A stretch of DNA of 35,588 nt from positions 1-35,588 of the forward strand of contig JANNWY010000197.1 of NCBI GenBank assembly GCA_031409335.1. The letters are read 5' to 3'. The notes under the pieces were generated by a model that made no database searches, was not told the DNA's origin, and saw only the letters and a program-made list of their open reading frames with translations. The first letter of the stretch is position 1; each line of letters starts with the position of its first letter. The DNA comes from Chthoniobacteraceae bacterium (lineage in GTDB: Bacteria > Verrucomicrobiota > Verrucomicrobiia > Chthoniobacterales > Chthoniobacteraceae). The translations under genes were made by a program, and so were the position numbers. This document shows positions 5,308-31,797 of this stretch, piece after piece.

Positions 5308-5736
5308 ATGAAATCTTTTTCCCGTTACCGAAATTCAGGCTTCACTCTCCTGGAAATCATGCTGGTGGTTATGATTATCGCGCTGTTAGCAGGTTCGGCG
5401 ATTTACATGATGCAAGGAAACATCGGGGTTGCGAATGATGTTCGCATCAAAAGTGACCTACTTGCGCTCAAATCGCCGTTAACAGTTTATGCTGGCAATG
5501 GGTTCCTGCCGACGACCGAACAAGGGCTCAAGGCGCTGGTCACGAGGCCGGAAACTTCTCCAAAACCGCGCAATTGGCGAAAGCTGATGGATAGCACTCC
5601 GCTCGATCCTTACGGGGAGGAATATCATTACGTTCAGCCCGGCATTCACAACCCGGACAGCTACGACCTCTTTTCATCTGGAAAGGATCGCATCGCGGGC
5701 ACGCCAGACGACATGGGAAATTGGGAATCACAGTAA
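5308..5736 (+). CDS. gspG: Type II secretion major pseudopilin GspG
   Basis: Prepilin cleavage/N-methylation motif G|FTLLEIMLVV; PTTEQGLKAL, DPYGEEYHY, YDLFSSGKD...TPDDMGNW. Alternative start at 5281. Confidence 0.92.
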   Translation: MKSFSRYRNSGFTLLEIMLVVMIIALLAGSAIYMMQGNIGVANDVRIKSDLLALKSPLTVYAGNGFLPTTEQGLKALVTRPETSPKPRNWRKLMDSTPLDPYGEEYHYVQPGIHNPDSYDLFSSGKDRIAGTPDDMGNWESQ

Positions 5737-7570: not shown

Positions 7571-10500
7571 TCAACTCCGGCCAAAGATGAGGAAAAGCGC
7601 GAGCGCGAGAAACAGCGCGCCGGTCAGCACCTTTGCGAGCGCGGTGTGCTTTTTTTGGAAAGCGATCAGCGCGTCGCTGCGCATCCCGGCCCACGCGAGG
7701 ATGAAGATCGCGACGAGCGGGACGATGAACGCGCCGTTGTAAAGCAGCAGCAATCCGAGCGCGTCGCGCTGGCCGTTGCGCAGCATGAACTGGATCGTCG
7801 GCAGATAGACCTGGCCGGTGCAGGCGAGTTCGAGCAGCGAGATGACGATGCCCGCTCCGAATGCGGCGGCCACGAAATTCCGCGCGCGCGTGCCGGTGCG
7901 GACGACGGTGCGGATTTGGTCTTTCAGAAAACCGGGAAGCTGGAGCGTCATGTCACCGAGCCGTCCATCGGCGGCGAGGCGCGCGTCGCGGAAGCTGAGA
8001 AGGGCGATGACGGCGGCGAGCGCGGCGAGCACGTAGTTGAGGAGATTTCCCGCAATGCGAAACGCGGCGGCCTTTTCAAAAAGCTGCACGAGGCCGAGCC
8101 CGACGAGGAAATACGCGAGGAAGACCGCGCTGATAAACGCCGCGCCGACGGCGAGGATTTCGCGCGGGGTGCGGCGCGCGATCTGGAGATAGGAAAGCAG
8201 GAAGATGATCGTGGCGAAGGCGCACGGATTGATGCCATCGAGCAGGCCGGCGGCGACGACCACGCCGCGGTCGAGCGCGGCGTAGCGCTGCACGATGCGC
8301 TGCTGCGCGGACGCGATCTCGGGCGCGGCGGCCTCGGCCCACGCGGGGTCGGGCGTGAGCGCGGCGGCATCGCGCAGGAGCGTGCCGAGCGCGGTGAAAT
8401 CCAGACCGTCGCGGACCAGCGCGCCAGCCTGCGTGAAGACGGCGGGCGCGACTTGATGCAGCGTGTCCCGGATCCGCAGGCGAGTGGAAAGCGTTTCGTT
8501 GAGCAACGCCTCGCCGGGGGATTCGATGTTGCGTTCCTCCAGCGTCATCTGCGGGAACGCGGCGGCGTGGCGGTTGAGCTGGTCGCGCACGCGCTCGCAG
8601 TCGCGGCAGCCGGGTTTGTAGAAAAAGAGGACGCGGAACGGCTGGCCCGTCGCGGGAGCGTCGGGCACGGGCGCGGCGATGGTGTTGTCCGCGCCTTTTT
8701 GCGCGTCGGGCGCGAGCGCGGCGATGGCTTGGAAACTCGTGTAGGGGCTTTGCGCGCCATCGAGTCCGAAGTGGGCGAGCGCCTTCTTTTCGTTCGAGGT
8801 GTCGTCGTCGAAGCCGAGGATCGGCACGAGCACGGCGTAGCCTTTGCCAAGGCGCGCGTAGTTTTCCGTGACCCACGATTTCACGCGGTAGCGCGCGCGC
8901 GACGACTCCTCGTTCTGCGCCGCGAGCAGCGTGGCAAAGGCCGCGGGCTCGACCGGGCGGCCGAGCCGCAGCAACGCAAACTGCGCCGCGAAGCGCACCG
9001 CGTCGGCGGGATCGTTCGCGAGCTTTTCCACCGTGGGAATCAAGTCCGCGCCAGCCCCGCCCGACGGTTCGCCCGTCGCCCACGCGCCAAATTTCTGACG
9101 GCGTCCGGAGCTGCGGCTGCTGCCAAATTCCTCGCCGTCCGCGGCGCTGTGCGCGTCGTCGAAATGGTGTATCCAGCCATCGTCCGGCGCGGCGGTAAAT
9201 GGCACGACGGCGCGGACGAGCGCCTCTCGGTCGTTCAGGATCGCATCGAGCCGCGGCTCCACTGCCGCGCGGCCGAGCGCGCGAAAAGCGGCGCGGCGCA
9301 GCACGGGATTTGCGTCGTTGAGAAAGCGTTCGAGGCCCTGCCCGCGCGCCTGCTGCGTTTGCCCAAGCAGCACCATCGCGAACACTTTCCGGCCCGGCGC
9401 CGCATCGCTGGCGAGAATCTTTTTCGCCCACGCGAGGACCGGTGCGTGCGCGGTGGAATCGGCGAGGATGCGATGCAGGTAATAATTGTAGATGTCTTCG
9501 GGATCGAGCAGCGAACCGGGCCGCGAAAATTCTTCGAGCAGCGCAGCGAGGCCCGCGGCCTTCGCGGAATTCAGCCACACATGGATCGCCGTCTCCCGCA
9601 CATCGCCTGCCGGGTGCTTGAGAACGCGGAGGGCGAGTTCGAGAAACGGGCCGTCGCTCCACGGCGCGGCGGGCGCCAGCGAACTCGCGACGCGGCGGCA
9701 GTCGAGGGCGCTGAGTGTATCGTAGATCGCGAGCAGTTTTTGCGCGGCCTCCGCGTGGCGCTGCGCAGTCAGCACGCAGGCGGCGGAGAATTGCTGGCGC
9801 GGCGAGCCAGTGCGCAGAAATTTTTCCAACACCGCGCGCATCTCGGCAGGCGGCGCGTGCGTCTCGGGCGGGATCGCGTCCGTCCCGGGCTTGTCCGGCG
9901 TTTTCGCAAACGCATTGTAAAGCTGATCGAGCGCCGCATTCGGCGCGGCGGTTTCACTTGTGGAAACAGGGACGCCGCTGGGCAGCGCGAGCACATCGAG
10001 CACGGCATCGGCCCGCGTCTGATCCCCGCCTGTCAACGCCGCGAGTAGCTGCGCGGTGAAGCGTCCGTGGCCCGCGAGAATGCGCAGCGCGGCGGCGGCC
10101 ACGTCGGCGTTCGGATGCGCTGCGAACCGCGCGACGAACCCCGCTTTCCACGGGCCGCGCTTTTCGTTGCCGCCGAAGGTTTCGTCGCGGTTGTCGAAAA
10201 GATCGAGCGCGAGCAGCAGCGTTTCCGCGGGCGCTTTCCACAGCGCCTCGGTCATTTCGGCGGGCGGCGCGGTCGGGCTCGATGAGATGTAGAGCTTGAG
10301 AATCGGCGGCTTGAGATCGTCGTGGCGCAGGAAGAACGGCGTCAGTTTTTGCAGCACACTTTTCCCCGTGTCCGCCGATTCATCGTCGTCGTTGCCGTAG
10401 CTGCCACCCGTTTTTTCCCCCGCCAGCGCGCCGACCGCGCTGATGCGCACAAAGGAATCCGTATCGTCGAGCCGCGCCTCGATTTGTTTTTCGAGCCCCT

Positions 10501-11773
10501 TCGAGCCGCGTTTCCCGATCGTCTCCAGCGCCGTCGCGCGCACGCGCCAGCGCGCATCGCCGAGCCGCGCCGCGAGTTGTGCGACCGCGTCGCCGCGCGT
10601 GTTCGTGGCGAGGGCTTCGAGCGCGGTGATGACCACGTTCTCCGACGGATGTTCGAGATGGCGCGCGATCGTTTCCGCGCTCGCCGCATCGCCGCCAAAT
10701 TTTCCCAGCCCGCGCAGCATCGAGTGCAGCACGCTCTCCGTGCGCTCGCCCTTCGCGTCATCCGCGCCGAGCCGCGCGAGGATCGGCGGCACCGCGTGCG
10801 CGCCGCCCGCCTTGAACGCAGAATCCACCGCCGTCTCGCGCACGAGCGGATCTGGCGCGGCGAGAAAATCCGCAAGGATCGGCAGCACCGCCGGCCCGCC
10901 GTCGCCGAGCGCGCCGAGCGCGGTGGACTGCTGCTCCAGCGTGCCCAGCGCGAGATCTCGCGCGAGCGCCGCGGCCTGCCGCGGCAGCGCGGTAAGCAGC
11001 ACGAGCCGGTATTGCGCGGACTTGAGTTGCGCGCGCGGCGCGGCCTCGAGGTCGGCTTGCGCGTTCAGAAAATTTTCGATCCGCGCCACCGCGCCGAGCC
11101 CGAAGGCCTCCATGCGCTGCACGCCGCGCTCCCCGCGCGCGCGGTCGCCGGACATGATCTCCATCGCCGCCGCGCGAAACGTGTCGTCATTCAGCGCCGC
11201 GTCCGGTTTCGCGGCGGGCGTGCCGCTTTCCACCCACGCCTGCCACTTCGCGAGCGCGCCCGCATTTCCGCCCGACGCAGGCTCCTCGCGCCACGGATCG
11301 AATCCCAAATCGTCGCCCGCCGCTTCCTCCAAAAGATCGAGCGCGCCGAGCCGCACCGCGAGCAGCGGATGGCCGAGCCTCGCGACGAGTTGCTTCGCGG
11401 GAAAAGGCTTCATCTCGCGCACCAGCGAACGCACCACCCGCGCCTGATCCTTCTGCCCAAGCGCCTCCAGCACCGGTGGCCACCGGTCGTCCGGCACGCC
11501 CTCCGTCCGCATTTTTTCAAAATCCGCCAGCGAAAGTCCGGGCCGATTCCCCGCATTTTCGATCGCCCCGTGCAGCGGCAAAACCGCGAGCAGCGCGGCG
11601 GCGATCACGAGCCGCAGCTTCGTCGCGAATCGCGAACGTAGCGCGGGCGTCCCCGCCTGCCGTATCGCAGTGCTTCCAGCCTGCCTCACGTCCACCGATT
11701 GCACGCGCGAGGCAGGCTGGAAGCCCGCGATACGGCAGGCGGGGACGCCCGCGCTACTTTCTTTCGCGTTCAT
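7571..11773 (-). CDS. 1400-aa fusion: signal peptide, HEAT/PBS-lyase-like repeats, thioredoxin/glutaredoxin-like CxxC domain, DsbD/CcdA-type transmembrane domain
   Basis: HEAT-like units (DPLVRETAV, DARWRVRATALETIG, DTDSFVRISAVGAL, DANPVLRRAAFRAL); FFYKPGCRDC (8597-8608) with a later VAPAVF; TM region with DGINPCAF and LELACTGQVYLP. ATG 11773 overlaps the upstream stop (TGATG). Confidence 0.85.
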   Translation of the reverse strand: MNAKESSAGVPACRIAGFQPASRVQSVDVRQAGSTAIRQAGTPALRSRFATKLRLVIAAALLAVLPLHGAIENAGNRPGLSLADFEKMRTEGVPDDRWPPVLEALGQKDQARVVRSLVREMKPFPAKQLVARLGHPLLAVRLGALDLLEEAAGDDLGFDPWREEPASGGNAGALAKWQAWVESGTPAAKPDAALNDDTFRAAAMEIMSGDRARGERGVQRMEAFGLGAVARIENFLNAQADLEAAPRAQLKSAQYRLVLLTALPRQAAALARDLALGTLEQQSTALGALGDGGPAVLPILADFLAAPDPLVRETAVDSAFKAGGAHAVPPILARLGADDAKGERTESVLHSMLRGLGKFGGDAASAETIARHLEHPSENVVITALEALATNTRGDAVAQLAARLGDARWRVRATALETIGKRGSKGLEKQIEARLDDTDSFVRISAVGALAGEKTGGSYGNDDDESADTGKSVLQKLTPFFLRHDDLKPPILKLYISSSPTAPPAEMTEALWKAPAETLLLALDLFDNRDETFGGNEKRGPWKAGFVARFAAHPNADVAAAALRILAGHGRFTAQLLAALTGGDQTRADAVLDVLALPSGVPVSTSETAAPNAALDQLYNAFAKTPDKPGTDAIPPETHAPPAEMRAVLEKFLRTGSPRQQFSAACVLTAQRHAEAAQKLLAIYDTLSALDCRRVASSLAPAAPWSDGPFLELALRVLKHPAGDVRETAIHVWLNSAKAAGLAALLEEFSRPGSLLDPEDIYNYYLHRILADSTAHAPVLAWAKKILASDAAPGRKVFAMVLLGQTQQARGQGLERFLNDANPVLRRAAFRALGRAAVEPRLDAILNDREALVRAVVPFTAAPDDGWIHHFDDAHSAADGEEFGSSRSSGRRQKFGAWATGEPSGGAGADLIPTVEKLANDPADAVRFAAQFALLRLGRPVEPAAFATLLAAQNEESSRARYRVKSWVTENYARLGKGYAVLVPILGFDDDTSNEKKALAHFGLDGAQSPYTSFQAIAALAPDAQKGADNTIAAPVPDAPATGQPFRVLFFYKPGCRDCERVRDQLNRHAAAFPQMTLEERNIESPGEALLNETLSTRLRIRDTLHQVAPAVFTQAGALVRDGLDFTALGTLLRDAAALTPDPAWAEAAAPEIASAQQRIVQRYAALDRGVVVAAGLLDGINPCAFATIIFLLSYLQIARRTPREILAVGAAFISAVFLAYFLVGLGLVQLFEKAAAFRIAGNLLNYVLAALAAVIALLSFRDARLAADGRLGDMTLQLPGFLKDQIRTVVRTGTRARNFVAAAFGAGIVISLLELACTGQVYLPTIQFMLRNGQRDALGLLLLYNGAFIVPLVAIFILAWAGMRSDALIAFQKKHTALAKVLTGALFLALALFLIFGRS
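11638..11757. repeat. GTAG-family REPIN (120 bp) inserted in frame near the 5' end of the HEAT-Trx-DsbD gene
   Basis: Begins GTAG and ends CTAC; 31-bp perfect inverted arms, a small internal loop, then a further 16-bp perfect stem; length is exactly 40 codons. Confidence 0.9.
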
Positions 11774-12588
11774 CAATGCAGCAGCGCGTAGGCGACGATG
11801 TTCACATTCATCTCCAGCGAATTGCGGATTTCATTTCCACCGCAGCAGCAGCAGCCGGTCGAGTTGTGCGTGTCGTTCAAGCCGTGCCGCGAATAGACGA
11901 CGACCAGCTTGCCGTTCACCTCGATGCCTTCGAGCACCGCGGTGCCGGAGGATTTCGCGAGGTCGAGTTTTTCGATTTTGAAAACCGTGCGGTAGAGCGG
12001 GTGCTCGGGCGGGATCGCCTTGATCGGCGCGTCCGGCAGCAGCGTGCGCAGTTCGCGGCGAAAAGCCTCGTCCCACTCCTTGCTCGAGCAGCCCGACGAC
12101 GCGAGCAGGAAGCCGCCGCCGAGCAGATACTTCGCGAGGTTTTCGCGCTCCGCTTGCAGCAGCCGGAAGTCGCCCTCGCCGGTCATCACGAGAAAGGGAA
12201 AATCGTAGAGTTCCTTCGCGTCGAGCTTCACCGGCTTGAAGCGCCGCTCGGTGACGATGGTGGTTTTTTGCTGGAGCGTGTTGAGGAAGGTGTCGCTGAA
12301 ACAGCGCGACGTTTTGTTGCCCGCGTAGATGACGTTGGCGCATTGGACGATACCCTGCTTTTCGGCGAGGGCGGGGAAAGTCAGCGCGAGGAGGAGAACG
12401 AAGACCGGGATTTTTATGGCTCGCAGCCACGGCGCCTGCGGCGGGCTAAACTTCAAACGCCAAACTGCAAACGCCAAACGCCAAACGGTGGAAGGCGCGC
12501 GCGCTTCAGTCTTTTGAAGTTTGGCGTTTGGCCGCGCGCAGCGCCCGCACAATGGAAGTTGAATGCTCGTCTTCATGTTAGTTTTCAT
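11773..12588 (-). CDS. Exported DUF4159-like protein with C-terminal GCCCCGG motif
   Basis: YDFPFLVMTGEGDF, ENLAKYLLGGGFLLA, IPPEHPLYRTVFKI, LEGIEVNGKLVVVYS; signal-like IPVFVLLLALTFPALA; ATGA overlap with the upstream stop. Confidence 0.8.
   Translation of the reverse strand: MKTNMKTSIQLPLCGRCARPNAKLQKTEARAPSTVWRLAFAVWRLKFSPPQAPWLRAIKIPVFVLLLALTFPALAEKQGIVQCANVIYAGNKTSRCFSDTFLNTLQQKTTIVTERRFKPVKLDAKELYDFPFLVMTGEGDFRLLQAERENLAKYLLGGGFLLASSGCSSKEWDEAFRRELRTLLPDAPIKAIPPEHPLYRTVFKIEKLDLAKSSGTAVLEGIEVNGKLVVVYSRHGLNDTHNSTGCCCCGGNEIRNSLEMNVNIVAYALLH
12448..12531. repeat. Inverted heptamer (AAAC-NNC) tandem repeat within the DUF4159 N-terminus
   Basis: AAACTTC AAACGCC AAACTGC AAACGCC AAACGCC (12448-12482), central GAAGGCGCGCGCGCTTC, then the inverted TTTGAAGTTTGGCGTTTGG (12513-12531). 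Confidence 0.75.
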
Positions 12589-15347
12589 GGCTTGTTCTCT
12601 GTCGAAAAATATCGCTTCACCGCCGCGCGGTAGCTCTCCGGCACAGCCTCGGGCGCGACCGCTTCGCCCGCGCCTTCGCTCGTGTCGCGCGTCCCGATGT
12701 CCGATGCGCCGGTGCTCGCATTGTCCTCGGGCCGGCCCGCGCCATCCTTGCCTCCGCGGCCTTTGCCGATCTCCGGCCCGCCGCGTTCCTTTGCTCCGGG
12801 GCGGCTACGCGATGGGCCGAAAACTGGCAGCCGCGGCAGCTTGCCCGCGACCGAATAGCCGCTGTCGCTGTTCCCGCTGAAGCCGCCCTCGCCACTCGTG
12901 CCCGCGCCCGTTTGATCGCCGCTGCCGGGGCGCGGGATGAGCGAGCGCATCAGCGAATTCAGCGTGGAGGCGAGATCTTCGGGCAGCGGGAACGGCGCGG
13001 AGTCGCACTCGCCGCTGCACATCTCCGCCATGCCGTTTTTTCGTTTGAGCAGGCTTTCGAGCAATTGCACCGCGACCTCCGATTGCGACGCGGCGAGTCG
13101 GCTGTCGCCCGCTTCCGCGGCCTTCGTCGCGCCGTCCATCACCTCCGGGATGTTTTCGTTTTCGAGTGCTTCGAGAAACTCACGCCCTTCCTCCCGCATC
13201 CGCGCGAACTCCTCGGGCAGCGCGTCGAGCACCGGGCCGAGTTCCCGCGGCCACGCGCGCAATTCCTCCGCGATGGCAGATTGCCGCGCGCCGAGATCGC
13301 GCAGCGCCTGTCCCGCCTGCGTCTGGCCGCGCCGGATTTGCTCCACCATGCGATTCAGGTCTTTCAAAAGATCGCGCTGCCGCTGCACGAGCTGCTGAAA
13401 CTCCGCCGCCTTCTCAAACACCTTCGCCGCCTCGATCGCGCGCTTGCCTTTGTCCATGTCCTTCGCCATCCGCTCGCGGCTTTCGCCGAGACGATCCTGC
13501 AATTCTTTCATCGCGCCGGCCATCGCCTGCGGATTGGCGTCCTTGAGTTTTTCGAGGTCTTGAAAATTCTCGAACAGCTTTTTCCCCACGTCAGCGGCGG
13601 CTTGGGAAAGCGGCTGGTCCACGTCGAAGATTGGAAAATCCTTCGCGATCTCGCCAAAGGTTTTGCCCGCCTCCTCGTGCGCCTCCTGCGCTTTTTGCCG
13701 CGCGGATTCCGCGGCTTTCACGCCGCCGGATTCCGCGGCCTTCCTCATTTCCTCCAAAGCCGCGCGCGCCTTTTCCAGCGCCGCATCCATCGCCTCGTAA
13801 CGCGCGGAAAATTCCTCCAGCGTCACGCGGCTGCGCAGGATTTGCGCGTACTGCTTGTGGTCGATGATGCGGATGCGCGCGGGATCGGAGACGGACACGC
13901 CGAGCAGATTCGGATTCGTGTCGCCGGCTTCGAGCGTGAGTTCGATGGTCTGTCCGGGCTGCACGCCAAAGGGCGCGAGCTTGATCGTGCCGCCGAATTC
14001 GTGCCGCCGCTCGCCCGTCTGCACGGCCTCCGCCGCCGCGCGTTCGCGAAAGCCGGTGAGCTTGCGCACGAGCGAAACGCGCACCAGCCCAAGGTCGTCG
14101 CGCGCGTCGGCTTCGAGCGGCAGTTCGCTGTCGGGCGTCGCGAGGATTTCGCCGGACGGCTGGCGCAGCATCACGCTCGGGCGCTCGTCGGGCGTTACTT
14201 TTTGCTCGATCTGGAGCGGCTCGGAAAGCGTGCCCGCGACATCGCGCACCTCGAGCGCGATCCGCGCCGCGGCGCGCAGCACCCAGGAAAATCGCGCCTC
14301 GTGCGTGCCGCTCGTTTCCGCGGCGATCTCCTCCGCGCCGACGCGGAGTGTGCCGCTGCCGAGCGGGCGATTGCTGGTGACGAGCGCGGTGATGCGGCTG
14401 CCCGGCAGCGCCCCGAGAGCTTGCGAGCCGACGGTGAAGACGCGCTTCGGCAGGCGGGAATATGCGGGCGGCTGCACGGTGAGCAGCACGTCCTGCACTT
14501 TCGGCTGCATCAGCACGTTCACGCGCATCCACGCACTGCGCGCGCGCCCGACGGCGAACGCCACTTCGACGGGCGCGGCCATCTTTTCCAGCTTCCGCGA
14601 AAAGCGCGCGGCGTTTTCCTGAAACGCGGGCGAGTCATCGGTGCGGCCCGTCGCCGGATCGCGCGTGAGGCAGCGCACGGGCGCGGTGAATTTGCCGCCG
14701 GCGATGTCGGCGCTGACGAGAATTTCGCCGCCGTAAATCACCTCCGCCGGTTGCGGGCCGACGAGGAAGTTCAGCGGCGTGTAAGGCGGAATGTCCGCGC
14801 GCGGCTGGAGCAAACGCCGCGCGATGATCGACGATGCGTTCGGTGAAAAGAGCGCGCACGTCGCAAGCAGCATCGCCGCGCCCGCGAGCCAGCACGCTGC
14901 GCGTCCGAGCGAACGCAGCGGCAGCGCGCGGGCAAGGCGCACTGCGCGCACACGCTCGCCGGCCCCTGCGACTGCGCGCTCGCGCAGCCACGCGCCGAGC
15001 GGCGTGGCGGGCGCGCCGTTTGCGGACGCGAGTTCAAATGCGGAGAGGACTTCGCGACGATCGCTCGCGAGCGCGCGATCCGCCGTGGCCGCCGCGTCCG
15101 CGCGACGAAAGGCGAACACTTTCCAAAGCGCGCGCAGCACGCCGAACACGCCAACCGCGACGATCGCCGCGAACGCCACACGCCGCGCGGGATCGGTGAA
15201 GCCCGCGTAAAAATCGAACACGCCGAGCACGAGCAGCGCGAGCGCGGCCCACGCGAGAGCGCGGAGGATTTCGGCGAAAAACACGCCGAGCCGCCAGCGA
15301 CGGTGAAAGCCCGCGAGGGCCGGGAGGAAGTGGGATGCGGCTTTCAT
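12585..15347 (-). CDS. DUF4175-like membrane-anchored protein (3 N-terminal TM segments, Ig-like region, coiled coil, Gly-rich tail)
   Basis: Start MKAASHF at ATG 15347 (ATGA overlap); VQPPAYSRLP, PDERPSV, ARDDLGL, long Q/E/K/L helical region, C-terminal VPESYRAAVKRYF. Confidence 0.8.
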   Translation of the reverse strand: MKAASHFLPALAGFHRRWRLGVFFAEILRALAWAALALLVLGVFDFYAGFTDPARRVAFAAIVAVGVFGVLRALWKVFAFRRADAAATADRALASDRREVLSAFELASANGAPATPLGAWLRERAVAGAGERVRAVRLARALPLRSLGRAACWLAGAAMLLATCALFSPNASSIIARRLLQPRADIPPYTPLNFLVGPQPAEVIYGGEILVSADIAGGKFTAPVRCLTRDPATGRTDDSPAFQENAARFSRKLEKMAAPVEVAFAVGRARSAWMRVNVLMQPKVQDVLLTVQPPAYSRLPKRVFTVGSQALGALPGSRITALVTSNRPLGSGTLRVGAEEIAAETSGTHEARFSWVLRAAARIALEVRDVAGTLSEPLQIEQKVTPDERPSVMLRQPSGEILATPDSELPLEADARDDLGLVRVSLVRKLTGFRERAAAEAVQTGERRHEFGGTIKLAPFGVQPGQTIELTLEAGDTNPNLLGVSVSDPARIRIIDHKQYAQILRSRVTLEEFSARYEAMDAALEKARAALEEMRKAAESGGVKAAESARQKAQEAHEEAGKTFGEIAKDFPIFDVDQPLSQAAADVGKKLFENFQDLEKLKDANPQAMAGAMKELQDRLGESRERMAKDMDKGKRAIEAAKVFEKAAEFQQLVQRQRDLLKDLNRMVEQIRRGQTQAGQALRDLGARQSAIAEELRAWPRELGPVLDALPEEFARMREEGREFLEALENENIPEVMDGATKAAEAGDSRLAASQSEVAVQLLESLLKRKNGMAEMCSGECDSAPFPLPEDLASTLNSLMRSLIPRPGSGDQTGAGTSGEGGFSGNSDSGYSVAGKLPRLPVFGPSRSRPGAKERGGPEIGKGRGGKDGAGRPEDNASTGASDIGTRDTSEGAGEAVAPEAVPESYRAAVKRYFSTENKP

Positions 15348-17548: not shown

Positions 17549-17601
17549 GGGAACCTCCAAAGCGCCGCCACTTCGCGCGTGGTTTTCAAGACTTCGTTCA
17601 C
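17545..17601 (-). CDS. Putative 18-aa translational 'bridge' mini-ORF (MNEVLKTTREVAALWRFP)
   Basis: GTG 17601 overlaps the upstream stop (GTGA); its TGA (17547-17545) overlaps the downstream ATG 17548 (ATGA). Confidence 0.35.
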   Translation of the reverse strand: MNEVLKTTREVAALWRFP

Positions 17602-19682
17602 ACTTCCACTGCGCTCCTTTCCTCGCGTTTCGCACTGATCGGCTCCGCATCCGCGCGGACGCGGAACCAGCGAATGCAAACACCTTCCGCGAGCAGGCAC
17701 AGCGCGGCGAGGGCCACGCACCACGGCCAGAGCGGACGGCCTTCGCGCAGCTCGGCGAGGCGGGTGCGCGCCGTGTCGCTGACGACGGTGCCGCCGGCTT
17801 GCGCGAGTTCGGCGGCGGTGAGCTGGCGCAGGTCGGATTCGTTTTCGGGAAAATTGATGACGGCGCGATCGAGCACGCCGCCTTGCGCGAGCCAGCGGTA
17901 GCTGCCGGGCGCGGGCGGCTCGGCGGTGATGAGCCGCTGCGCGGATTCGGCACTGAGCGCGGCGGGCTGGTCGAGATCGTTGACGAGCGTCACGAGCTTC
18001 GGATCGAGCGCCGCGCCAGTATCCAGTCGGAGCGGTTCGCCAGGCTCGAACGTGTGAAGCGTATCGCTATTCACTCGAAGCGCGAGGTGCCGGATGAACT
18101 CGCCGAAAAACGCAACGAAGCCCGCGCGCTCCGGCCAGTCGGATTCGCCGAGATCAAGGTTCCACCACGCGATCAATGCCGGGCGTTCACCGCCAACGTT
18201 AAAGTCGATTAACGTGAGCGCGGGAACGCCGTCGTCGAATTCGAGCAGCGGCGTGACCGGGAGAGAAAAGTGCATCGCCACACGCTGCCGAAAGCGCGCA
18301 TTGACCGGATCGCCAAACGAGCCGCTCGCGAACAGCGCGAACATCGGATGATCTTCATTGGCAATGCGCAGCGCCCATCCCGGTGCATCGCGCCGCTCGG
18401 CGGTGAGCGGTCCTTCCGCGGCGGCCGGCACCCCACCGGACCACATGTGGACGGCCTTCCGATCAAGGCCCGGAGCCGCCTGGACGACGAGTGGCCCGTG
18501 TTTCAATTGCGCCCGCAGTGCCTCGTTCGTATCGATATTCGCATCGCCACTCCAACCCGCGACGAGTGCGACATCGAACGAATTGTCGCGCACAAGATCG
18601 GCGAGCGAAACGCGCCGAACGTTCGCAGCATCGAGCGCGCGCGCGGCCCGTTCCCAAGCGCGCGCGGTCGCGTCGTTTTCAGCGCCGACGATCGCGATGC
18701 GCACCGCGCCGCGCACATCGGCCAGCGCGTAGCGCGTGTCGTCGCCGGGGAAGCGGTCTTCGGAAAGCGTCGCCTTGAGCGGGATGAGTCCCTCGGCGGG
18801 AAATTTCACCGGCATGATCGCGAGCGTCTCGGACCACGGCGCGATCTCGACGGCCTGCGACAAGCGGCTTTCACCCGCCTCGGCGAAGACAGTGACGCGG
18901 CGCGGCTCGCTGGAAAAATTGCGCACGCGGCAGACGAGCCGCGCATCCTGTCCGGCGATGGGCCGCGCGGGTTCGAGCGCGAGGCCGGTGAGACCGGTAT
19001 TCGCGGCGTCGCCCGCGCCTACTGCAATCAACGTAAGCACGATGTCAGGCGGCGTTTCATTTCTCACATTTCGCCATGTTGATTTTTGGAAGTCGGAGCA
19101 GATGACGAGTTCGCGTTCGCCTTCCGCGGCGGCGAGTTGTTTCAACGCGAGATTTATCGCGCCGCCAATGTCGCCGGGCTCGGCCTGCACGCTGGCCTGG
19201 CGGAGCGACTGACGCAGAAAAGCGAGATTCGGCCCCGGCTCGGGCAGCGCGGATTCGGCGTGCGCGCGAAGCCAGACGAGGTTCGCGCGCGCGCCGGCAG
19301 GGAGCGTGGCGAGCACGTCCTCGGCGGCCGCGGCGGCCTGCGCGAGCCGCGTGCGCGTGCCGTCGGCGAAGCCCAGTGAGGCGGTCGCATCCACGACGAT
19401 GACAGTCGTGCGCGACGCCCCGCTTTTCGCCCCGAAACGCGAGAGCAGCCACGGCTGCAAAAACGCGGCGACCAGCGAGAGCATCGCGAGCGTGCGCAGC
19501 AGCAGGAGCCAGCGATCGCGCGGACGCCGCACCCGCGTGACGCGCCGCATCGCCTCACGCAGCAGCCGCAACGATGGGAAATCGCGCGTGCGCGGACGCG
19601 TGCGCGAGAAGAGATGCGCGAGCAGCGGCACGGCGATGAGCGGGGCGATCAGCCAGATGGGATTTTGGAAAAAGACGTTCAT
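17598..19682 (-). CDS. BatA-like N-terminal double-TM + vWA domain protein
   Basis: Start MNVFFQNP; PLLAHLFSR...FPSLRLL...LLLLRTLA...QPW; MIDAS-like VVDATAS and ICSDFQ; C-terminal VINFPENESDL and LWPWCVALAALCLLAE. Confidence 0.88.
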   Translation of the reverse strand: MNVFFQNPIWLIAPLIAVPLLAHLFSRTRPRTRDFPSLRLLREAMRRVTRVRRPRDRWLLLLRTLAMLSLVAAFLQPWLLSRFGAKSGASRTTVIVVDATASLGFADGTRTRLAQAAAAAEDVLATLPAGARANLVWLRAHAESALPEPGPNLAFLRQSLRQASVQAEPGDIGGAINLALKQLAAAEGERELVICSDFQKSTWRNVRNETPPDIVLTLIAVGAGDAANTGLTGLALEPARPIAGQDARLVCRVRNFSSEPRRVTVFAEAGESRLSQAVEIAPWSETLAIMPVKFPAEGLIPLKATLSEDRFPGDDTRYALADVRGAVRIAIVGAENDATARAWERAARALDAANVRRVSLADLVRDNSFDVALVAGWSGDANIDTNEALRAQLKHGPLVVQAAPGLDRKAVHMWSGGVPAAAEGPLTAERRDAPGWALRIANEDHPMFALFASGSFGDPVNARFRQRVAMHFSLPVTPLLEFDDGVPALTLIDFNVGGERPALIAWWNLDLGESDWPERAGFVAFFGEFIRHLALRVNSDTLHTFEPGEPLRLDTGAALDPKLVTLVNDLDQPAALSAESAQRLITAEPPAPGSYRWLAQGGVLDRAVINFPENESDLRQLTAAELAQAGGTVVSDTARTRLAELREGRPLWPWCVALAALCLLAEGVCIRWFRVRADAEPISAKREERSAVEV

Positions 19683-19951
19683 CCTCTGGTGCCTGTCATT
19701 GGGTTGCTCGCGACTCCGGCGGGCCAAAGGCCCAGCGACATGGCAGCCCAGGGCATCGCCCTGGGTAGCCGATAAAGAAGAAGCGAGCCCTGAAAGGGCG
19801 AAACAAGGATTCGCCGCCGCAGGTGTTCCGCCCTTTCAGGGCTGGGGCCTGTCTGACGACGAACCCAGGGCGTTGCCCTGGGCTGGCTTGTTTCTGGGCC
19901 TTCGGCCCGTCGGAGTGGGGTTCGGACGAAAAAATACATCGCGGTTTTCAT
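19679..19951 (-). CDS. Putative 90-aa REP-derived 'bridge' ORF (MKTAMYFF...GTRG)
   Basis: ATG 19951 overlaps the DUF58 stop (ATGA); its TGA (19681-19679) overlaps the BatA-like ATG 19682 (ATGA); most of the ORF is a palindromic repeat. Confidence 0.4.
   Translation of the reverse strand: MKTAMYFFVRTPLRRAEGPETSQPRATPWVRRQTGPSPERAEHLRRRILVSPFQGSLLLYRLPRAMPWAAMSLGLWPAGVASNPMTGTRG
19713..19916. repeat. Composite REP-like palindrome (A-B-C-C'-B'-A'), 204 bp
   Basis: A GGGCCAAAGGCCC 19721-19733; B CCCAGGGCATCGCCCTGGG 19747-19765; C GCCCTGAAAGGGC 19787-19799; C' 19830-19842; B' 19864-19882; A' 19896-19908; outer ACTCC/GGAGT ends. Confidence 0.88.
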
Positions 19952-20829
19952 GCGAATGCGCCGCCAATGCGGTCGAACAGCGGCCAGTAGCTGCCGTCGG
20001 TGCGGGCGAGCGCATAATCGACCTGGCGCTGCGCGCTGAGCGTGCGCAGGCGCGCGAGATGGGCGTCGAGCGTGGCGCGGTAGGCGGTGGCGACGGCGCG
20101 CGGATGCAGCGTGAGTTGCTCGCGCGTTTCGAGATCCTGATAGCGCGCGAGCGTGCCGTCGCCGAGGTCCATTTCCTGCGGCGAGAGCAGGTGGAAAAGA
20201 TGCACGCGGAAGCCGCGATGGAGGAACGGATTCAGCGCGTGGAAGACGGCGGCGGGGTCGTCGTAAAAATCGGAGAGGATGATGACGGTGCCGCGGCGGC
20301 GAAGCTGGAGGCTGGCGCGGCCAAGCGCGGCGGCGAGCGAAGTCGGGCCGCGCGGCGCGTTGTGTTCGAGCGCGCTGAGGATGTTGTGCAAATGCCGGCG
20401 CGTGCTGCCGGGCGGATGAAATTCGCGGATGCGGTCGTCGAAAATTTGGAGCGAGACGCGGTCGCTGCCGCGCACGACGAGCCACGCGAGCGCGGCGGCG
20501 AAGAACGACGCGAACTCCAACTTCGAGAGCGCACCGCCCCCGTTGAAGGCCATGCTTTCACTCGAGTCGAGCAGGACGTGGCACTCGAGATTTGTCTCCT
20601 GCTCGAAGGTCTTCACGCAATGCCGGTCGTTGCGCGCGAACACGCGCCAGTCCACGAGCGCGGGGTCGTCGCCGGGCGTGTAGGCGCGATACTCGTGAAA
20701 CTCCATCGACGGCCCGCGCAGCTTGGAACGATGCCGCCCGGCGAGCCAGCCCTCGGCGATGAGCTGGGCGGAAAGCTCGTAGGATTCGAGGCGGCGGACA
20801 TCTTCGGGGCGGAGATACTTGAAGGGCAT
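19948..20829 (-). CDS. DUF58 family protein (vWA-like MoxR partner)
   Basis: GRHRSKLRGPSMEFHEYRAYTPGDD..VDWRVFAR..VKTFEQET, LLDSSESM, ILSDF; start MPFKY at ATG 20829. Confidence 0.92.
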   Translation of the reverse strand: MPFKYLRPEDVRRLESYELSAQLIAEGWLAGRHRSKLRGPSMEFHEYRAYTPGDDPALVDWRVFARNDRHCVKTFEQETNLECHVLLDSSESMAFNGGGALSKLEFASFFAAALAWLVVRGSDRVSLQIFDDRIREFHPPGSTRRHLHNILSALEHNAPRGPTSLAAALGRASLQLRRRGTVIILSDFYDDPAAVFHALNPFLHRGFRVHLFHLLSPQEMDLGDGTLARYQDLETREQLTLHPRAVATAYRATLDAHLARLRTLSAQRQVDYALARTDGSYWPLFDRIGGAFA

Positions 20830-20841
20830 GGGACAGGGGCG

Positions 20842-20933
20842 GAAAACATTCAACTTGCAACGTTCAACGAGGCGAGAGCGTCCATGAGGTTTCTTTGAAA
20901 GTTGGAAGTTGAGCGTTGGACGTTGAACGTTTC
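20842..20933. repeat. Inverted heptamer (AAC-NNNC) tandem repeat between moxR and DUF58
   Basis: Left arm AACATTC AACTTGC AACGTTC AACG (20845-20869); right arm TTGAAAG TTGGAAG TTGAGCG TTGGACG TTGAACG (20895-20929). Confidence 0.8.
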
Positions 20934-20939
20934 TCCCAA

Positions 20940-21926
20940 TCAGACTTTCCCCAGCAAATGCCCAATGATGTCCTCGACGCTGATGCCTTCGCCCGTCGCG
21001 TTGTAATTCGGGATGATGCGATGGCGCAGCACCGACGGGGCGGCGGCTTTGACTTCGGCGATCGAGGCGCTGTCGCGTCCGCGCAGGAGTGCGAGGGCGC
21101 GGGCGGCGCGGACGAGCGCCTGCGCGGCGCGCGGGCCGGCACCCCAGCTCACGTATTTTTTCACGTAATCGTCGGCGAGCGGCGACGCGGGGCGGCTGCT
21201 GTGCGTGAGCGTGAGGATCGAGCGTTTCACGTTGTCCGGCAGTGGCACGTCGTGGACGGAATTTTGCAACGTGATCAGGCTCGCGCTGTCGAGGATCGTC
21301 TCGGCAACGTCGGGCTGCGCGCCGGTGGTGCGGTCGAGGATGGCGAGTTCTTCGTCCATGCTCGGGTAGTCCACGAGCAGGTGGAAAAAGAAGCGGTCGA
21401 GCTGCGCCTCGGGGAGCGGATAGGTGCCTTCGTGCTCGATCGGATTTTGCGTGGCGAAAACGAGGAACGGCTCTTCGAGACGGCGCGTGTGGCCGGCGAC
21501 GGTGACTTGTTTTTCCTGCATCGCTTCGAGCAGCGCGGCCTGCGTTTTCGGCGGCGTGCGGTTGATTTCGTCGGCGAGAATGAGGTTCGCGAAAATGGGA
21601 CCGGGCTGGAACTCGAAGCGGCGCTGGCCGGTGTCGCCCGCCTGCAAAATCTCGGAGCCGACGATGTCCGCCGGCATGAGATCGGGCGTGAATTGGATGC
21701 GCTGAAATTTGAGGCCGAGGATTTTTCCGAGAGTGGAAACGAGCAGCGTTTTCGCGAGGCCGGGCACGCCGACGATGAGGCAGTGGCCTTTGCACAGCAG
21801 CGCGGTGAGCATCAGCTCGACGACCGCATCCTGGCCGACAATGACGCGCGCGGTTTGCTCGCGGATGCGCTGCACTTGCTGGCGGGTTTGCTCCCAGAGT
21901 TGGGCGGGTTCGTGGGTTTGTTGCAT
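20940..21926 (-). CDS. moxR: MoxR-family AAA+ ATPase
   Basis: Walker A GVPGLAKT, RIQFTPDLMPADI, Walker B ILADEINR, QAALLEAMQE, ATQNPIEHEGTYPLPEAQLDRF; start MQQTHE at ATG 21926. Confidence 0.93.
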   Translation of the reverse strand: MQQTHEPAQLWEQTRQQVQRIREQTARVIVGQDAVVELMLTALLCKGHCLIVGVPGLAKTLLVSTLGKILGLKFQRIQFTPDLMPADIVGSEILQAGDTGQRRFEFQPGPIFANLILADEINRTPPKTQAALLEAMQEKQVTVAGHTRRLEEPFLVFATQNPIEHEGTYPLPEAQLDRFFFHLLVDYPSMDEELAILDRTTGAQPDVAETILDSASLITLQNSVHDVPLPDNVKRSILTLTHSSRPASPLADDYVKKYVSWGAGPRAAQALVRAARALALLRGRDSASIAEVKAAAPSVLRHRIIPNYNATGEGISVEDIIGHLLGKV

Positions 21927-21939
21927 GGGTTCGGATTGG

Positions 21940-24897
21940 TTAATTTTCTTCTTCGTCTTCGTCAGTTTCCTTGATGGGGCGCGCCATCCACCAGAGGCCG
22001 AATTCACCGCGCGCGGCAGGCTTTCCGGCGATGAGATCGCGCACGGCGTTGTCGAATGGCGTGGGGTCGTTGGTCTTGCCGGGAAAGCCTTGCTGCTGTA
22101 AGCGCGCGGCTTCGCCGTCTTCCGGCGCGGGCTTTGCGCCTTGGTCGGCGGGCTGCGCAAATTTCTCGCGCCACGCGCGGCTGAGGTCGGGATTTTTCCA
22201 AAGCGCGTAGGCAAACATGATTGGCTTGCGCTGCCCTTCTTCACGCACCGTAAAGTAGGCGGAGATGATCGCTTCGGGCGGCGGCTGTCCTTCGAGCAGC
22301 GGGGTTTTCGCTTGGGCGAGTTGCGCCTTGTCGATGCTCCGCGCACCGCGTCCGCTTTGGAGAGCGAACTTTAATCCGCCGAGCAAGCCGACTGGCGCGA
22401 CGCCGACCGTGCAGGCATGTCCGTTGAGCGCGGCTTTCTCCGTGGCTTCGGCAATCTCTTTGCGCATCGCATCGTCGAAGCGCCGGCCTTTCCAGCGGTC
22501 GGCGTTGAACGCCTTCGCAAACTCGCTGCCGTCCAACTGCGTGCTGGTGACGGTGAGGCGCGCGGCAAGCAAGGCGGGAGGCCATTCGGCGAACTTGCCG
22601 AGTTGCGCGACGACGGCGGCTTGCTCGTCGGGAGTTTTCGCGAGCAGCGCGGGGAGGATTTTTTCTGGCGCGAGCGCGACGACCTCTTTCAAAATCTCGT
22701 CGGCGCGTCCGGCGGGGACGCGCGCGGCGTCGGGGATCGGCGGCGCGGGCTGGTCGGCGGCGAGGGCGCGCGCGTGCGCTTTGATCCAGCCGATGCCGAA
22801 CTCGGGACACGTTTGGAGCAGCTTTTGCCACGTTCCATTTTCGCCCGCCGCGAGCCGGGGCAGGACAAACGCGAGCGCGGTGAAGTCGCCGAAATTCTGC
22901 GCGGACGCGACCCAGTAAATCGGTTCGGGAATCGGCGTCTCGTCCGCGAGCAAGGTCGCGATGGCGGCGCGGGTCGCGGCATCCGGCGCGGCGGGCGCGG
23001 TCTTTTTCCCCCCGCGCTCGTGCTGCATGATGAGCGAAAGAATGCCGCTGCGCACCGCGGGATCTTTGGCTTTGGGCGCGAGTTGGTAAAGCTGCGCCTC
23101 GGCCTGCGGCCACGGGACTTTTTCGAGCTGGCCTTGGAGCGTTTCCCAAAGCTCAATCGAACTTTCTTTGTCGGCATCGGCGAGTTCGGCAAGCATGTCG
23201 GCGAGGCCCTGCGGTTTGAAAATCTGGTCGAACTTCTTGAGTTCGCCGTCGGCCTGGCGCTCGTACGCTTTGCGCTGCTCGGGGTCGATCTTTCGACCAT
23301 AGTTTTCCAACCGCTCTGCGCTGCGGACCTTGATCGCGGCGGCAACGATGGGGCGGAGCTTTTCACCAAAGGCCGCGGCGTCGGAGCCGAGTTTGGCGGC
23401 GTAGGCTTCGAGTTGCGCGGTCACGTTGTCATTCGCTCCGCCGTCCCACACGGCGGGATCGAGGAAGACATTCTGGAGCAGTTTTTGCGAAGCCGCGCCG
23501 CCCCTTTCCACGAGGAAACCGAGCGCGGGATCGAAGTTGTTGTCGCCAGTGCTTCCGCTCTCGCGCAGCGCGCTCCACGCGAGATCGTCGTCGCTCAATG
23601 CGGCGACCGTCGCGAACCACGCGAGCACTTTTTCCGCGCGCCCGGATTCGAGATCGTCGGCCTCGGTGCGCAGGCGGCTGGGGATGATGTTTTCGACGAG
23701 CGCCCATGCGAGTTCGCGGAGTTCGGCGGGACGGTCGAGGCCGCTATACTCGTGGCGGATACGCTCCGCGCGCGGCATGTCACTGCTGAAATAAGACGAT
23801 GAACTCGAATCCGATACGTCCGAGCGCCGGAGCGGGACGAGGCGGTGATCGTCGAGCAGTCGGGCGAGAGCGGCGAAGGCGGCGCGGCGGTCCGCGAAAA
23901 ATGCGGACGTGGGACCGTCGGACGCGCCTTCGCCGGACTCGACTGCCCGTCGCCCATCCTCGCCGCGCTGCGGCGATGCTCCGGGTGCGGCGAAAAGCCA
24001 GTTGGAGTCGCGCGGTAGCGATTCGATCTGATCGCGTTTTAGCGAGAGCAGGAAACTTGCGGCGCGCTTCCCAGCAGGGTCCGTGGCGAGGGGCGCGGGC
24101 GTTTGCGCGCGGGCGCGGCTGGCAAGGAAGAGCGCGGCATCGCGCCTCATCCAACCGCGCGGAAATTCGCCCGCGAGTTTTTCGATGGCAAGCGCGTAGG
24201 CCGCGTGGTCGCGTTTATCGAGGAAATCGTCGGTGAGCTGGCGCAGACGGCCATCCGCGAGGATGGACACGGCATGGTCGAGCGCGGCGGCGGAATCGCG
24301 AGTGAACGCGAGCGCGTCCCGCAGCAGAGTGGCGGCCTGTTCCGCGCGGCCTTGATGCTGAAGATGCGCGGATAGCAGGATCGCACCGGCAGCCATGGCG
24401 GGCTTCGCTTCCTCGCCGGAGAGATACTCGCCACTGACTCGGACGCCATTGCGGCTTTTCTTCGCGCCCGGCTTCAGCGCCTCGGCGAGCTTTTTCAAAT
24501 CGCCGTCGAGATCAGCCTCCTGGATTTGCGCCGCGGGAAGTTTGCCGCCGCTCTCGTCCTCAGCGCCCTTCGCGCGCCGGGCGCGGACGCGGCGGGTGTG
24601 ATCCACGATGAGTTCGACGGTCCCGGTTTTCTCCTCGCGCACGAGCCACGCATTTCCCGAGTAGCCCGCGCCATCGCCGCCCGGCAGCAGGATGCCGCCA
24701 TCGCCATTCTCAGCGAGCGATGCCTTCACCCACTTCGCACCGCGCGAATCCGGAAGGCCGAGTTTGAAAAAGTTTTCGAGTGTCTTCGCCAGCTCGACCG
24801 GCACTGCATCCTGTCCCAACGAGGTGCCTGCGCCGTGCCAAAATCCCGCTGCCGCAAATGAAACCACGAACAAGCAGGTTATGGATCCAATGCGCAT
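21940..24897 (-). CDS. Large secreted hypothetical protein (985 aa, mostly helical, acidic C-tail)
   Basis: Long ORF co-oriented with the operon, ending 13 nt before moxR; N-terminal signal-like MRIGSITCLFVVSFAAAG; no family recognised. Confidence 0.8.
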   Translation of the reverse strand: MRIGSITCLFVVSFAAAGFWHGAGTSLGQDAVPVELAKTLENFFKLGLPDSRGAKWVKASLAENGDGGILLPGGDGAGYSGNAWLVREEKTGTVELIVDHTRRVRARRAKGAEDESGGKLPAAQIQEADLDGDLKKLAEALKPGAKKSRNGVRVSGEYLSGEEAKPAMAAGAILLSAHLQHQGRAEQAATLLRDALAFTRDSAAALDHAVSILADGRLRQLTDDFLDKRDHAAYALAIEKLAGEFPRGWMRRDAALFLASRARAQTPAPLATDPAGKRAASFLLSLKRDQIESLPRDSNWLFAAPGASPQRGEDGRRAVESGEGASDGPTSAFFADRRAAFAALARLLDDHRLVPLRRSDVSDSSSSSYFSSDMPRAERIRHEYSGLDRPAELRELAWALVENIIPSRLRTEADDLESGRAEKVLAWFATVAALSDDDLAWSALRESGSTGDNNFDPALGFLVERGGAASQKLLQNVFLDPAVWDGGANDNVTAQLEAYAAKLGSDAAAFGEKLRPIVAAAIKVRSAERLENYGRKIDPEQRKAYERQADGELKKFDQIFKPQGLADMLAELADADKESSIELWETLQGQLEKVPWPQAEAQLYQLAPKAKDPAVRSGILSLIMQHERGGKKTAPAAPDAATRAAIATLLADETPIPEPIYWVASAQNFGDFTALAFVLPRLAAGENGTWQKLLQTCPEFGIGWIKAHARALAADQPAPPIPDAARVPAGRADEILKEVVALAPEKILPALLAKTPDEQAAVVAQLGKFAEWPPALLAARLTVTSTQLDGSEFAKAFNADRWKGRRFDDAMRKEIAEATEKAALNGHACTVGVAPVGLLGGLKFALQSGRGARSIDKAQLAQAKTPLLEGQPPPEAIISAYFTVREEGQRKPIMFAYALWKNPDLSRAWREKFAQPADQGAKPAPEDGEAARLQQQGFPGKTNDPTPFDNAVRDLIAGKPAARGEFGLWWMARPIKETDEDEEEN

Positions 24898-25014: not shown

Positions 25015-25557
25015 ATGAAGCGCCCAACAGAAAAATCACCGAACCCGCAGCGGGTGCTGATCCTTGTCGATGAATCCAACGTGACCAGCTCCGCGAAAGC
25101 GGCGAATCGAAAATTGGACTGGCTGAAGTTGCAGGAGTTTCTCCTCGGCGGGCGTGAGTTGATTGAAACCGCGATCTACGCGGGCCTCCCGCCGGCCATG
25201 TCGGAGTGGCAGGCGGAGCGGGACAAGAAGAACAAGTTTCTCCACTGGCTGCGCTCGCACGGATTTATGGTGATGATCAAGGAGGGCTCGCCCGGCGCGG
25301 AGGCGCACTACAAGGCGAATGTCGATGTGCTGATGGCGATCGATGCGGTGGAGCTTTCCGTCCAGATGGAGCCCGATGTCGTCGTGCTCGTCTCGGGCGA
25401 CGCGGACTTTGCGTATCTCGCGTTGCAACTGCGCCGGCGCGGCATCCGCGTCGAAGCGGCCTCGACGATTCCGACGCTCGGCGCGGGATTGAAAAGTGCC
25501 GTCAACGCTTTCATCGACCTGACTCCGCTGTTGGAAACGTTTGAGTCGTTGGGGTGA
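25015..25557 (+). CDS. NYN domain protein (LabA/DUF88, PIN-like fold)
   Basis: LILVDESNV, KANVDVLMAID, LVSGDADFAYL...RRGIRVE. Confidence 0.88.
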   Translation: MKRPTEKSPNPQRVLILVDESNVTSSAKAANRKLDWLKLQEFLLGGRELIETAIYAGLPPAMSEWQAERDKKNKFLHWLRSHGFMVMIKEGSPGAEAHYKANVDVLMAIDAVELSVQMEPDVVVLVSGDADFAYLALQLRRRGIRVEAASTIPTLGAGLKSAVNAFIDLTPLLETFESLG

Positions 25558-25558
25558 C

Positions 25559-31740: not shown

Positions 31741-31797
31741 GGGCAGAGGTTGAAATAGTCGTTCCTCTTTCGTGTCGTTTGTGGCAGTTTCTTCATT

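Follow-up and report, generated by a model that had tools for sequence, protein, structure and literature searches.

Among the closest described relatives of the locus reported here are the Bat (Bacteroides aerotolerance) operons, with homologues in Leptospira, Borrelia, Francisella and Riemerella. That Bat-like complexes might deal in reducing power is a notion as old as the earliest Bat studies, and such a supply to the periplasm was put forward for Bacteroides fragilis (excerpts of PMC3557215). A moxR mutant of Riemerella was reported to be linked to oxidative and heat stress (excerpts of PMC11834572). MoxR/vWA pairs remodel their targets mechanically (excerpts of PMC13036017), and the BatA-type vWA domain of Borrelia faces the periplasm (excerpts of PMC5700661). 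Here, we analyzed a 35,588-nucleotide contig of a Chthoniobacteraceae bacterium (JANNWY010000197.1; this whole stretch is called the window), in which a MoxR/vWA operon ends in its own candidate thiol-redox relay, a fusion of HEAT repeats, thioredoxin (Trx) fold and CcdA-like membrane domain, next to a DUF4159 protein with a CCCC motif. The parts belong to known kinds; their combination appears to be new. Judging from the sequences, we lean slightly towards the view that the relay would keep the machine's own DUF4159 subunit reduced, and that DUF4159 would do chemistry on a protein held by the machine.

The operon has moxR, a DUF58 gene and two membrane vWA proteins, one of them BatA-anchored, in common with Bat operons, and the hydropathy of its proteins fits the periplasmic vWA topology of Borrelia BB0173 (excerpts of PMC5700661). 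In contrast, the TPR, BatD and SH3 domains of BatC-E were not found among the eight proteins of the operon by Pfam search at E 0.05 (criteria from the same excerpts). A DUF4175-like protein, the CCCC-DUF4159 protein and the Trx-CcdA-like fusion are present here, whereas the Bat domain list in the excerpts of PMC5700661 names no thiol relay. NorQ/NorD likewise combine a MoxR-class ATPase with neighbouring vWA proteins bearing a metal ion-dependent adhesion site (MIDAS; excerpts of PMC13036017). However, three vWA proteins are present in this operon, most of them predicted to be periplasmic and membrane-anchored, and no target enzyme is encoded nearby.

All eight open reading frames (ORFs) were located on the minus strand in an ORF check of the window and span 7571..24897. 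From gene 1 towards the fusion, the junction gaps are 13, 110, 265 and 49 bp, followed by three stop/start overlaps (ATGA, ATGA and TGATG), and the last four genes are translationally coupled. The gaps of 110 and 265 bp are the two largest, and both are filled by repeated palindromes. Thus, the original prediction of eight co-oriented, tightly linked genes is right about orientation, whereas tight linkage is strictly true for only five of the seven junctions. Its gene labels fared similarly: MoxR, DUF58, BatA, VWA, DUF4159 and HEAT were matched by Pfam/NCBIfam in the operon, while gene 1, the DUF4175-like gene and the membrane end of the fusion had no Pfam/NCBIfam match, and DUF4175, GATase (glutamine amidotransferase) and DsbD hold only as "like". 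The Cys motifs that it quoted (CSGEC, CCCC, CRDC and two membrane Cys) are all present at the positions given below.

The last gene (7571..11773, minus strand) encodes a protein of 1400 aa with a signal peptide, a HEAT solenoid, a thioredoxin fold and a six-helix CcdA/DsbD-beta-like domain. The CRDC of the Trx domain (C1056, C1059) lies at 8597..8608, and the membrane residues C1184 (NPC, first helix) and C1318 (ACTG, fourth helix) at 8222..8224 and 7820..7822, respectively. These four Cys were invariant in all of the best 120 long fusion homologues (120/120) and in 87/87 Trx-plus-membrane segments from many phyla; the middle residues of CRDC vary, and both of its Cys are invariant. The redox motifs of the fusion are therefore conserved, as had been expected of them. 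In the structural model (pLDDT, the predicted local distance difference test, 88), a thioredoxin fold is followed by helices. Comparison of the membrane domain with the DsbD_TM profile (29 segments; hhalign) gave a probability of 86.6, an E of 4.5e-6 and 202 columns, with both membrane Cys in register with those of DsbD-beta/CcdA. The window fusion itself has no match to Pfam DsbD_TM or DsbD_2, and 4 and 6, respectively, of the 87 homologues match at E ~1e-5. Fold searches with the Trx-CcdA model listed no CcdA structure, the lists being filled by thioredoxin-domain matches. Hydropathy revealed an N-terminal signal-like segment and six hydrophobic segments. Since basic residues crowd loops 1, 3 and 5, the HEAT and Trx parts would be periplasmic, and the proposed topology of a trans-membrane relay fits this pattern. 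With six helices, and with its membrane Cys in the first and fourth of them like those of DsbD, the fusion is CcdA-like rather than a DsbD or ScsB. By these sequence comparisons, the membrane domain is a divergent six-helix CcdA/DsbD-beta homologue.

DsbD, whose Cys positions and electron-transfer mechanism are established (excerpts of PMC3322552), shares with the fusion, as do CcdA and ScsB, a homologous membrane domain in which helices 1 and 4 each hold an invariant Cys, together with an exported thioredoxin fold on the same chain. However, in the window the Trx domain is N-terminal to the membrane domain, and there are six helices as in CcdA, not the alpha-beta-gamma arrangement with eight (excerpts of PMC3322552). 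A HEAT solenoid of 1000 residues stands where DsbD has its alpha domain, the second motif is CTGQ, and the domain falls below the Pfam cut-off. The Lys at +8 that marks ScsB (criterion from the same excerpts) is Leu in the window. Apart from the fusion, the source genome also encodes a typical ScsB, which makes the fusion an additional system. A role as housekeeping DsbD was rejected: DsbD_TM was found in 41/41 genomes, the long fusion in 10/300. The closest named relatives of the fusion are from Verrucomicrobiota, including a Chthoniobacteraceae record 73% identical across the membrane domain, and homologues are named from the cultured genera Luteolibacter, Roseimicrobium and Verrucomicrobium. 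Some fusions (L066, L077, L083 and L216) have an extra N-terminal thioredoxin domain (CTWC, CAWC, CSVC). A stand-alone family of glutaredoxin (Grx)-CcdA-like proteins with NPCA/CTGQ motifs (L082-L130) is widespread in Chloroflexota, Atribacterota, Lentisphaeria and others, and mostly escapes the Pfam DsbD models.

The gene before the fusion (11773..12588, minus strand; PF13709) encodes a single-domain exported DUF4159 protein with seven conserved Cys, C83, C96, C167 and C246-249, the last four forming the CCCC motif at 11842..11853. In an alignment of 43 sequences, C83 was kept in 42, and C96, C167 and C246-248 in all 43; position 249 was Cys in 40 and TGA in three. CCCC was found in 119/120 close homologues; conservation of this degree, like that of the fusion Cys, is beyond chance. 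The model (pLDDT 88.7) matched 4i66 with Z 20.4 and GATases with Z 8-9 (rmsd, the root-mean-square deviation, ~3.5; 145-160 residues aligned), and a class I GATase-like fold is predicted from it. In this model, built without a cofactor, confidence is lowest in the CCCC loop (pLDDT 59-68). From the secondary structure, C167 may lie just after the elbow strand, and together with the CCCC loop it would be at the face where GATases carry their active site. A complex prediction for the Trx domain with DUF4159 scored 0.00; it gives no verdict and was used neither way. Within the literature searched, the term "DUF4159" was met only in a Pfam release note.

The DUF4175-like membrane protein (920 aa; 12585..15347, minus strand) begins with three helices, which are followed by a long stretch predicted to be periplasmic. 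PF13779 (DUF4175) did not match the window protein and weakly matched 3/20 of its homologues, and the Atlas similarity to a DUF4175 cluster was 0.97. As the relation runs through homologues and the protein has no Pfam match of its own, we label it "like" only. Its CSGEC (13005..13019, minus strand) is one form of a variable Cys patch. Among 34 homologues, the patch had at least one Cys or selenocysteine (Sec, U) in 29, CxxC/UxxC in nine and CxxxC in only seven, and an in-frame TGA in five of the 34 loci. Thus, CxxxC does not hold as a conserved motif. A protein of 903 aa (P0249) joins a DUF4175-like part directly to a CCCC-DUF4159; it may be a natural fusion or an assembly artefact.

We collected 80 loci with the fusion alignment; in 27 of them, the HEAT fusion was present together with sufficient sequence upstream. 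In all of these fusion-selected informative loci (27/27), DUF4159 with CCCC lies directly upstream of the fusion, and where 10 kb of upstream DNA was available, moxR was reached in unchanged order in 19/20. The fusion is thus conserved next to the moxR operon. The seven genes from moxR to the fusion recur in order across Verrucomicrobiota (Verrucomicrobiae, Opitutia, Kiritimatiellia and Lentisphaeria) as well as at one locus of Planctomycetota. Among 300 Verrucomicrobiota genomes sampled without bias, 17 loci had a close DUF4159, all with CCCC. Ten of them carry the full fusion, and these are the only long fusions in the 300 genomes; in two, a UshA-like multiheme cytochrome replaces it. A search of 40 closer relatives of the source genome gave no fusion, and the distribution of the system is patchy. 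Among 300 genomes centred on the Planctomycetota locus L106, 20 strong loci were detected, with CCCC in 19/19 ORFs among those listed. One of these loci holds a type-A operon in full; among the rest are operons ending in cytochrome and Trx-HEAT or Trx, in cytochrome alone, or in a plain thioredoxin. The CCCC-DUF4159 protein is the constant redox element, and the electron source varies. Replacement of DsbD by a cytochrome c has a precedent (excerpts of PMC8782879).

The UshA-like protein that replaces the fusion in type-B CCCC operons belongs with the PCGU family NF041198, a listed selenoprotein family (PMC13188914). The copies here are fused to a multiheme cytochrome c, and no TGA was seen in the copies inspected. 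No member lies within the window. The source genome has a second CCCC-DUF4159 (L149:1829-6846, contig C177), which is separated from any moxR and accompanied by a DUF4175-like gene and by a PCGC multiheme cytochrome of the UshA-like kind (261 bits against NF041198, cut-off 275). A moxR-DUF58 pair on contig C141 groups with type B in the MoxR tree, and a lone BatA/vWA pair is on C83; it looks as if a type-B operon had been dispersed in this genome.

Some relatives are likely to use Sec in two of the operon proteins. CCC-TGA-GG was found at C249 in three genomes and TGA in the DUF4175-like patch in two, four genomes in all. A metagenome scan gave 18 pattern matches; nine were unrelated chance matches and were dropped, and nine were true CCC-TGA DUF4159 contigs, three of them also with a DUF4175-like TGA. 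The in-frame TGA aligns with a conserved Cys and conservation continues beyond it, both in DUF4159 (three genomes, nine contigs) and in the DUF4175-like protein (five loci). In 4/4 TGA genomes, selA, selB and selD were above cut-off, and selD itself contains a TGA; tRNA-Sec was above cut-off in 2/4 and just below in a third. Of 39 genomes without an operon TGA, nine had selA. About 20 nt after the DUF4159 TGA, a hairpin resembling a selenocysteine insertion sequence had a mean energy of -7.2 kcal/mol (n=9) versus -2.3 in the Cys forms (n=40). It is 87.5% paired with two compensated pairs, scores best at zero slide, and forces a protein change to S-V-R that is present in all CCC-TGA forms. For the DUF4175-like protein, such a hairpin was clear in L057, L142 and L080 and weak in L136 and L138. 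Sequencing error, pseudogenes and recoding to Trp were rejected as explanations of the TGA: within the operon alignments it is confined to one recurrent Cys position, and selD in these genomes likewise contains a TGA. The window's own genes all have Cys, and in the source genome selA had no match and selB and selD were below cut-off. The locus L080 is titled Vicinamibacteria, yet its MoxR and DUF4159 nest among Verrucomicrobiales, by mis-binning or transfer.

CCCU-DUF4159 and the UxxC DUF4175-like protein are thus two predicted selenoprotein families. Neither is in Table 1 of a 2026 selenoprotein inventory (PMC13188914), and term searches of parts of the supplements of PMC13326102 (about 4 million characters searched) and of PMC12013277 gave no mention of either.

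The core of the operon was analyzed in the same way. MoxR (328 aa; 20940..21926, minus strand) is a predicted cytoplasmic AAA+ ATPase matching PF07726 (AAA_3) with 211 bits (cut-off 27). The source genome has 13 moxR-like genes, and the type-A MoxRs form one clade (support 100/99) separate from the 12 other MoxR matches of this genome. The DUF58 vWA-like protein (293 aa; 19948..20829, minus strand; PF01882, 151 bits) is a predicted cytoplasmic adaptor, and its DxSxS was kept in 31/31 homologues. The BatA-type double-anchor vWA protein (694 aa; 17598..19682, minus strand; PF07584, VWA_2, TIGR02226) has hydrophobic segments at residues 3-21, 58-76 and 655-673, and Dx[ST]xS in 32/32 homologues. 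The next membrane protein (734 aa; 15344..17548, minus strand) was assigned vWA, Ig-like and GATase-like parts from profile matches. It matched the BatB-type vWA structures 4rck, 3ibs and 4jdu, and weakly the GATase1-like 2gk3/3soz/3rht (E 0.001-0.07); GATase1_like was matched by 1/22 homologues, and a single-sequence PDB search with the GATase-like domain gave no match. DxSxS was kept in 33/34 of its homologues, so that all three adjacent vWA partners keep the MIDAS motif. Gene 1 (21940..24897, minus strand) encodes an exported protein of 985 aa with an N-terminal hydrophobic segment, probably helical or HEAT-like and of unassigned family; its nearest Atlas neighbours were unnamed clusters of the Planctomycetes-Verrucomicrobia-Chlamydiae group, then HEAT proteins. 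A gene 1 homologue lies directly upstream of moxR in 9/11 type-A loci having ~3 kb or more upstream. Conserved Cys also occur on the predicted cytoplasmic side, namely C45 (25/27) and C49 (24/27) before the MoxR Walker A, and C83 of DUF58 (29/31).

From these results, we propose that the operon encodes a MoxR/vWA machine for remodelling in the inner membrane, and that a redox-active centre (CxxC/CxxU) would be located in DUF4159, its exported subunit. Electrons would run outwards from cytoplasmic thioredoxin to C1184/C1318, then to CRDC, and from there to C246/C249 of DUF4159. Electrons would also reach the DUF4175-like protein at its Cys/Sec patch in those relatives that have one, and the remaining DUF4159 Cys may be structural or resolving. 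Since the MIDAS motifs are kept, MoxR/vWA pairs remodel targets, and a BatA-type vWA domain is periplasmic in Borrelia, we infer a cytoplasmic MoxR-DUF58 motor acting on periplasmic vWA domains. The pull of MoxR would act on DUF58 and be passed by the BatA anchors to the vWA domains outside; the subunits would form a complex, and ATP hydrolysis may be coupled to the redox step. An envelope protein would then be gripped or remodelled while DUF4159 reduces or reshuffles its thiols.

Several results weigh against this proposal. Deletion of bat genes in Leptospira gave no oxidative-stress phenotype (excerpts of PMC3557215). In the unbiased sample, three of the 17 loci have Trx-HEAT-Trx without the CcdA part, one (L049) has a VKOR-DsbA-like gene, of the oxidising type, directly upstream of moxR (L049:6043-7200), and one (L042) keeps CCCC with no redox neighbour found. 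CcdA is thus not the obligatory part that the original prediction made of it, being absent in three, replaced in two and lacking altogether in two of the 17. A redox neighbour was scored absent in 5/20 Planctomycete loci, two of which are cut by contig ends. The Trx-CcdA unit without a HEAT match occurred at 45 loci, only 26 of which had at least 5 kb upstream; 44 had no operon genes nearby, the exception being L106. There, one chain of 1290 aa contains DUF4175, CCCC-DUF4159, a helical region, Grx and a CcdA-like domain, a fusion that speaks for the linkage of these parts, but no moxR, DUF58 or BatA match was found within 7 kb upstream. In favour of the proposal, a Trx, CcdA-like or multiheme gene was detected in 30/37 CCCC loci (15/17 unbiased Verrucomicrobiota, 15/20 Planctomycete) versus 2/20 other DUF4159 loci and 1/6 paralogous operons of the source genome, but CCCC loci supplied most of the sequences for the Trx profile, and the control loci differ in gene order and do not always cover the operon ends. 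The DUF4175-like patch has no Cys at all in 5/34 homologues. All Sec forms fall within one Verrucomicrobiales subclade (MoxR tree; quick-version DUF4159 tree) and may therefore be one event rather than independent ones. Sec is, moreover, a metal ligand in several enzymes (PMC13188914, section 7).

This last point also speaks for metal loading. The seven Cys of DUF4159 would then bind a metal or a cluster (Cu, Zn, Fe-S), the only task of the relay would be to keep these ligands free, and MoxR/vWA would drive metal insertion into an exported client, as NorQ/NorD do for nitric oxide reductase. MoxR/vWA pairs do insert metals (excerpts of PMC13036017), the MIDAS motifs are kept, and the seven conserved Cys are clustered, with the CCCC loop modelled least confidently when no cofactor is included. 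However, no metal transporter, metallo-enzyme or client gene recurs beside or downstream of the operon, where the neighbours differ among the loci listed; the Cys-rich or metal-binding exported clients of the original prediction were not found there. The partners that do recur are thioredoxin-fold CxxC proteins, and Sec is located at CxxU/UxxC, a position typical of thiol oxidoreductases, in which it is usually the redox-active residue (PMC13188914). We therefore regard metal loading as rather unlikely.

The Trx/CcdA arm might also serve only as a private isomerase, in some lineages an oxidase, for the disulfides of DUF4159, whose Cys would be structural while the machine's job is non-redox. 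With seven Cys and a CCCC motif, the protein would be prone to misfolding in the periplasm; a redox arm is lacking from most MoxR/DUF4159 operons, and the partners vary from CcdA-like and multiheme cytochrome to plain Trx and VKOR-DsbA. This explanation is distinctly unlikely, since structural disulfide Cys are not usually swapped for Sec with a dedicated hairpin that changes the sequence to S-V-R, the odd count of conserved Cys leaves one free, and TGA was gained in two different subunits. Finally, it is very improbable that the DUF4175-like, DUF4159 and Trx/CcdA proteins are an independent redox unit merely travelling with a generic MoxR/vWA cassette, as the three-gene fusion L106, the C177 copy and the Planctomycete loci L223, L225 and L231 without recognisable core genes upstream might suggest, because the order is kept across Verrucomicrobiae, Opitutia, Kiritimatiellia, Lentisphaeria and one Planctomycete, one MoxR clade accompanies the type-A arm, and core and arm are translationally coupled.

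In Rhizobium leguminosarum, the envelope operon RL3499-RL3502 (cmd) contains MoxR, DUF58, BatA-anchor and DUF4159-type genes. We know of no CCCC subfamily or Trx-CcdA fusion in it. No description of the present gene combination or of the two selenoprotein candidates was found in the openly accessible literature searched. On a wider view, which we hold only tentatively and think doubtful, the operon may represent a new class of envelope machine in which cytoplasmic ATP hydrolysis is coupled via integrin-like vWA domains to periplasmic thiol/selenol catalysis. A GATase-fold CCC(C/U) enzyme with interchangeable electron sources (CcdA-like relay or multiheme cytochrome) would reduce or unlock envelope proteins as MoxR remodels them, and in Bat-like systems generally the catalytic role would fall to DUF4159.

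Four palindromic repeats interrupt the operon. Two are intergenic: 20835..20935 between moxR and DUF58 (22 genome places) and 19690..19945 between DUF58 and BatA (45 genome places; -158 kcal/mol). Two are in frame: 12430..12575 at the DUF4159 N-terminus (22 genome places) and a long one, 11625..11760, at the fusion N-terminus (-126 kcal/mol hairpin; 11 genome places). The latter is absent from fusion homologues, and the DUF4159 repeat region is gapped in homologues. By this comparison, the repeat at the fusion N-terminus is lineage-specific and outside the conserved system. The closest fusion homologues begin Met-Lys-Leu, whereas the window fusion reads Thr-Lys-Leu at the same place. Thus, the start may have moved upstream of the -126 kcal/mol hairpin, which could affect fusion expression. 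A sigma-70 scan of the operon detected no promoter, and terminator-like sites (34 versus 24.3 +/- 4.8 in shuffled sequence) were uninformative.

Elsewhere in the window, a CxxCxxCC protein (25541..26233) and a beta-propeller protein with an apparently exported WCGPC thioredoxin behind it (30493..32487) are encoded near the operon on the opposite strand. A type II secretion system (T2SS) G-like pilin is at 5281..5736, and a PEP-CTERM protein with autotransporter-type repeats and no Cys at 33342..35543.

MoxR/DUF58/BatA operons are widespread, and the old reducing-power proposal has had conflicting support. The variant described here carries its own candidate relay and marks CRDC, C1184/C1318 and C249 as the key residues. 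It extends the DsbD superfamily by an unusual HEAT-Trx-CcdA architecture and brings two further predicted selenoprotein families. The predicted Sec in two proteins would offer a chemical means of probing this gene family by experiment.

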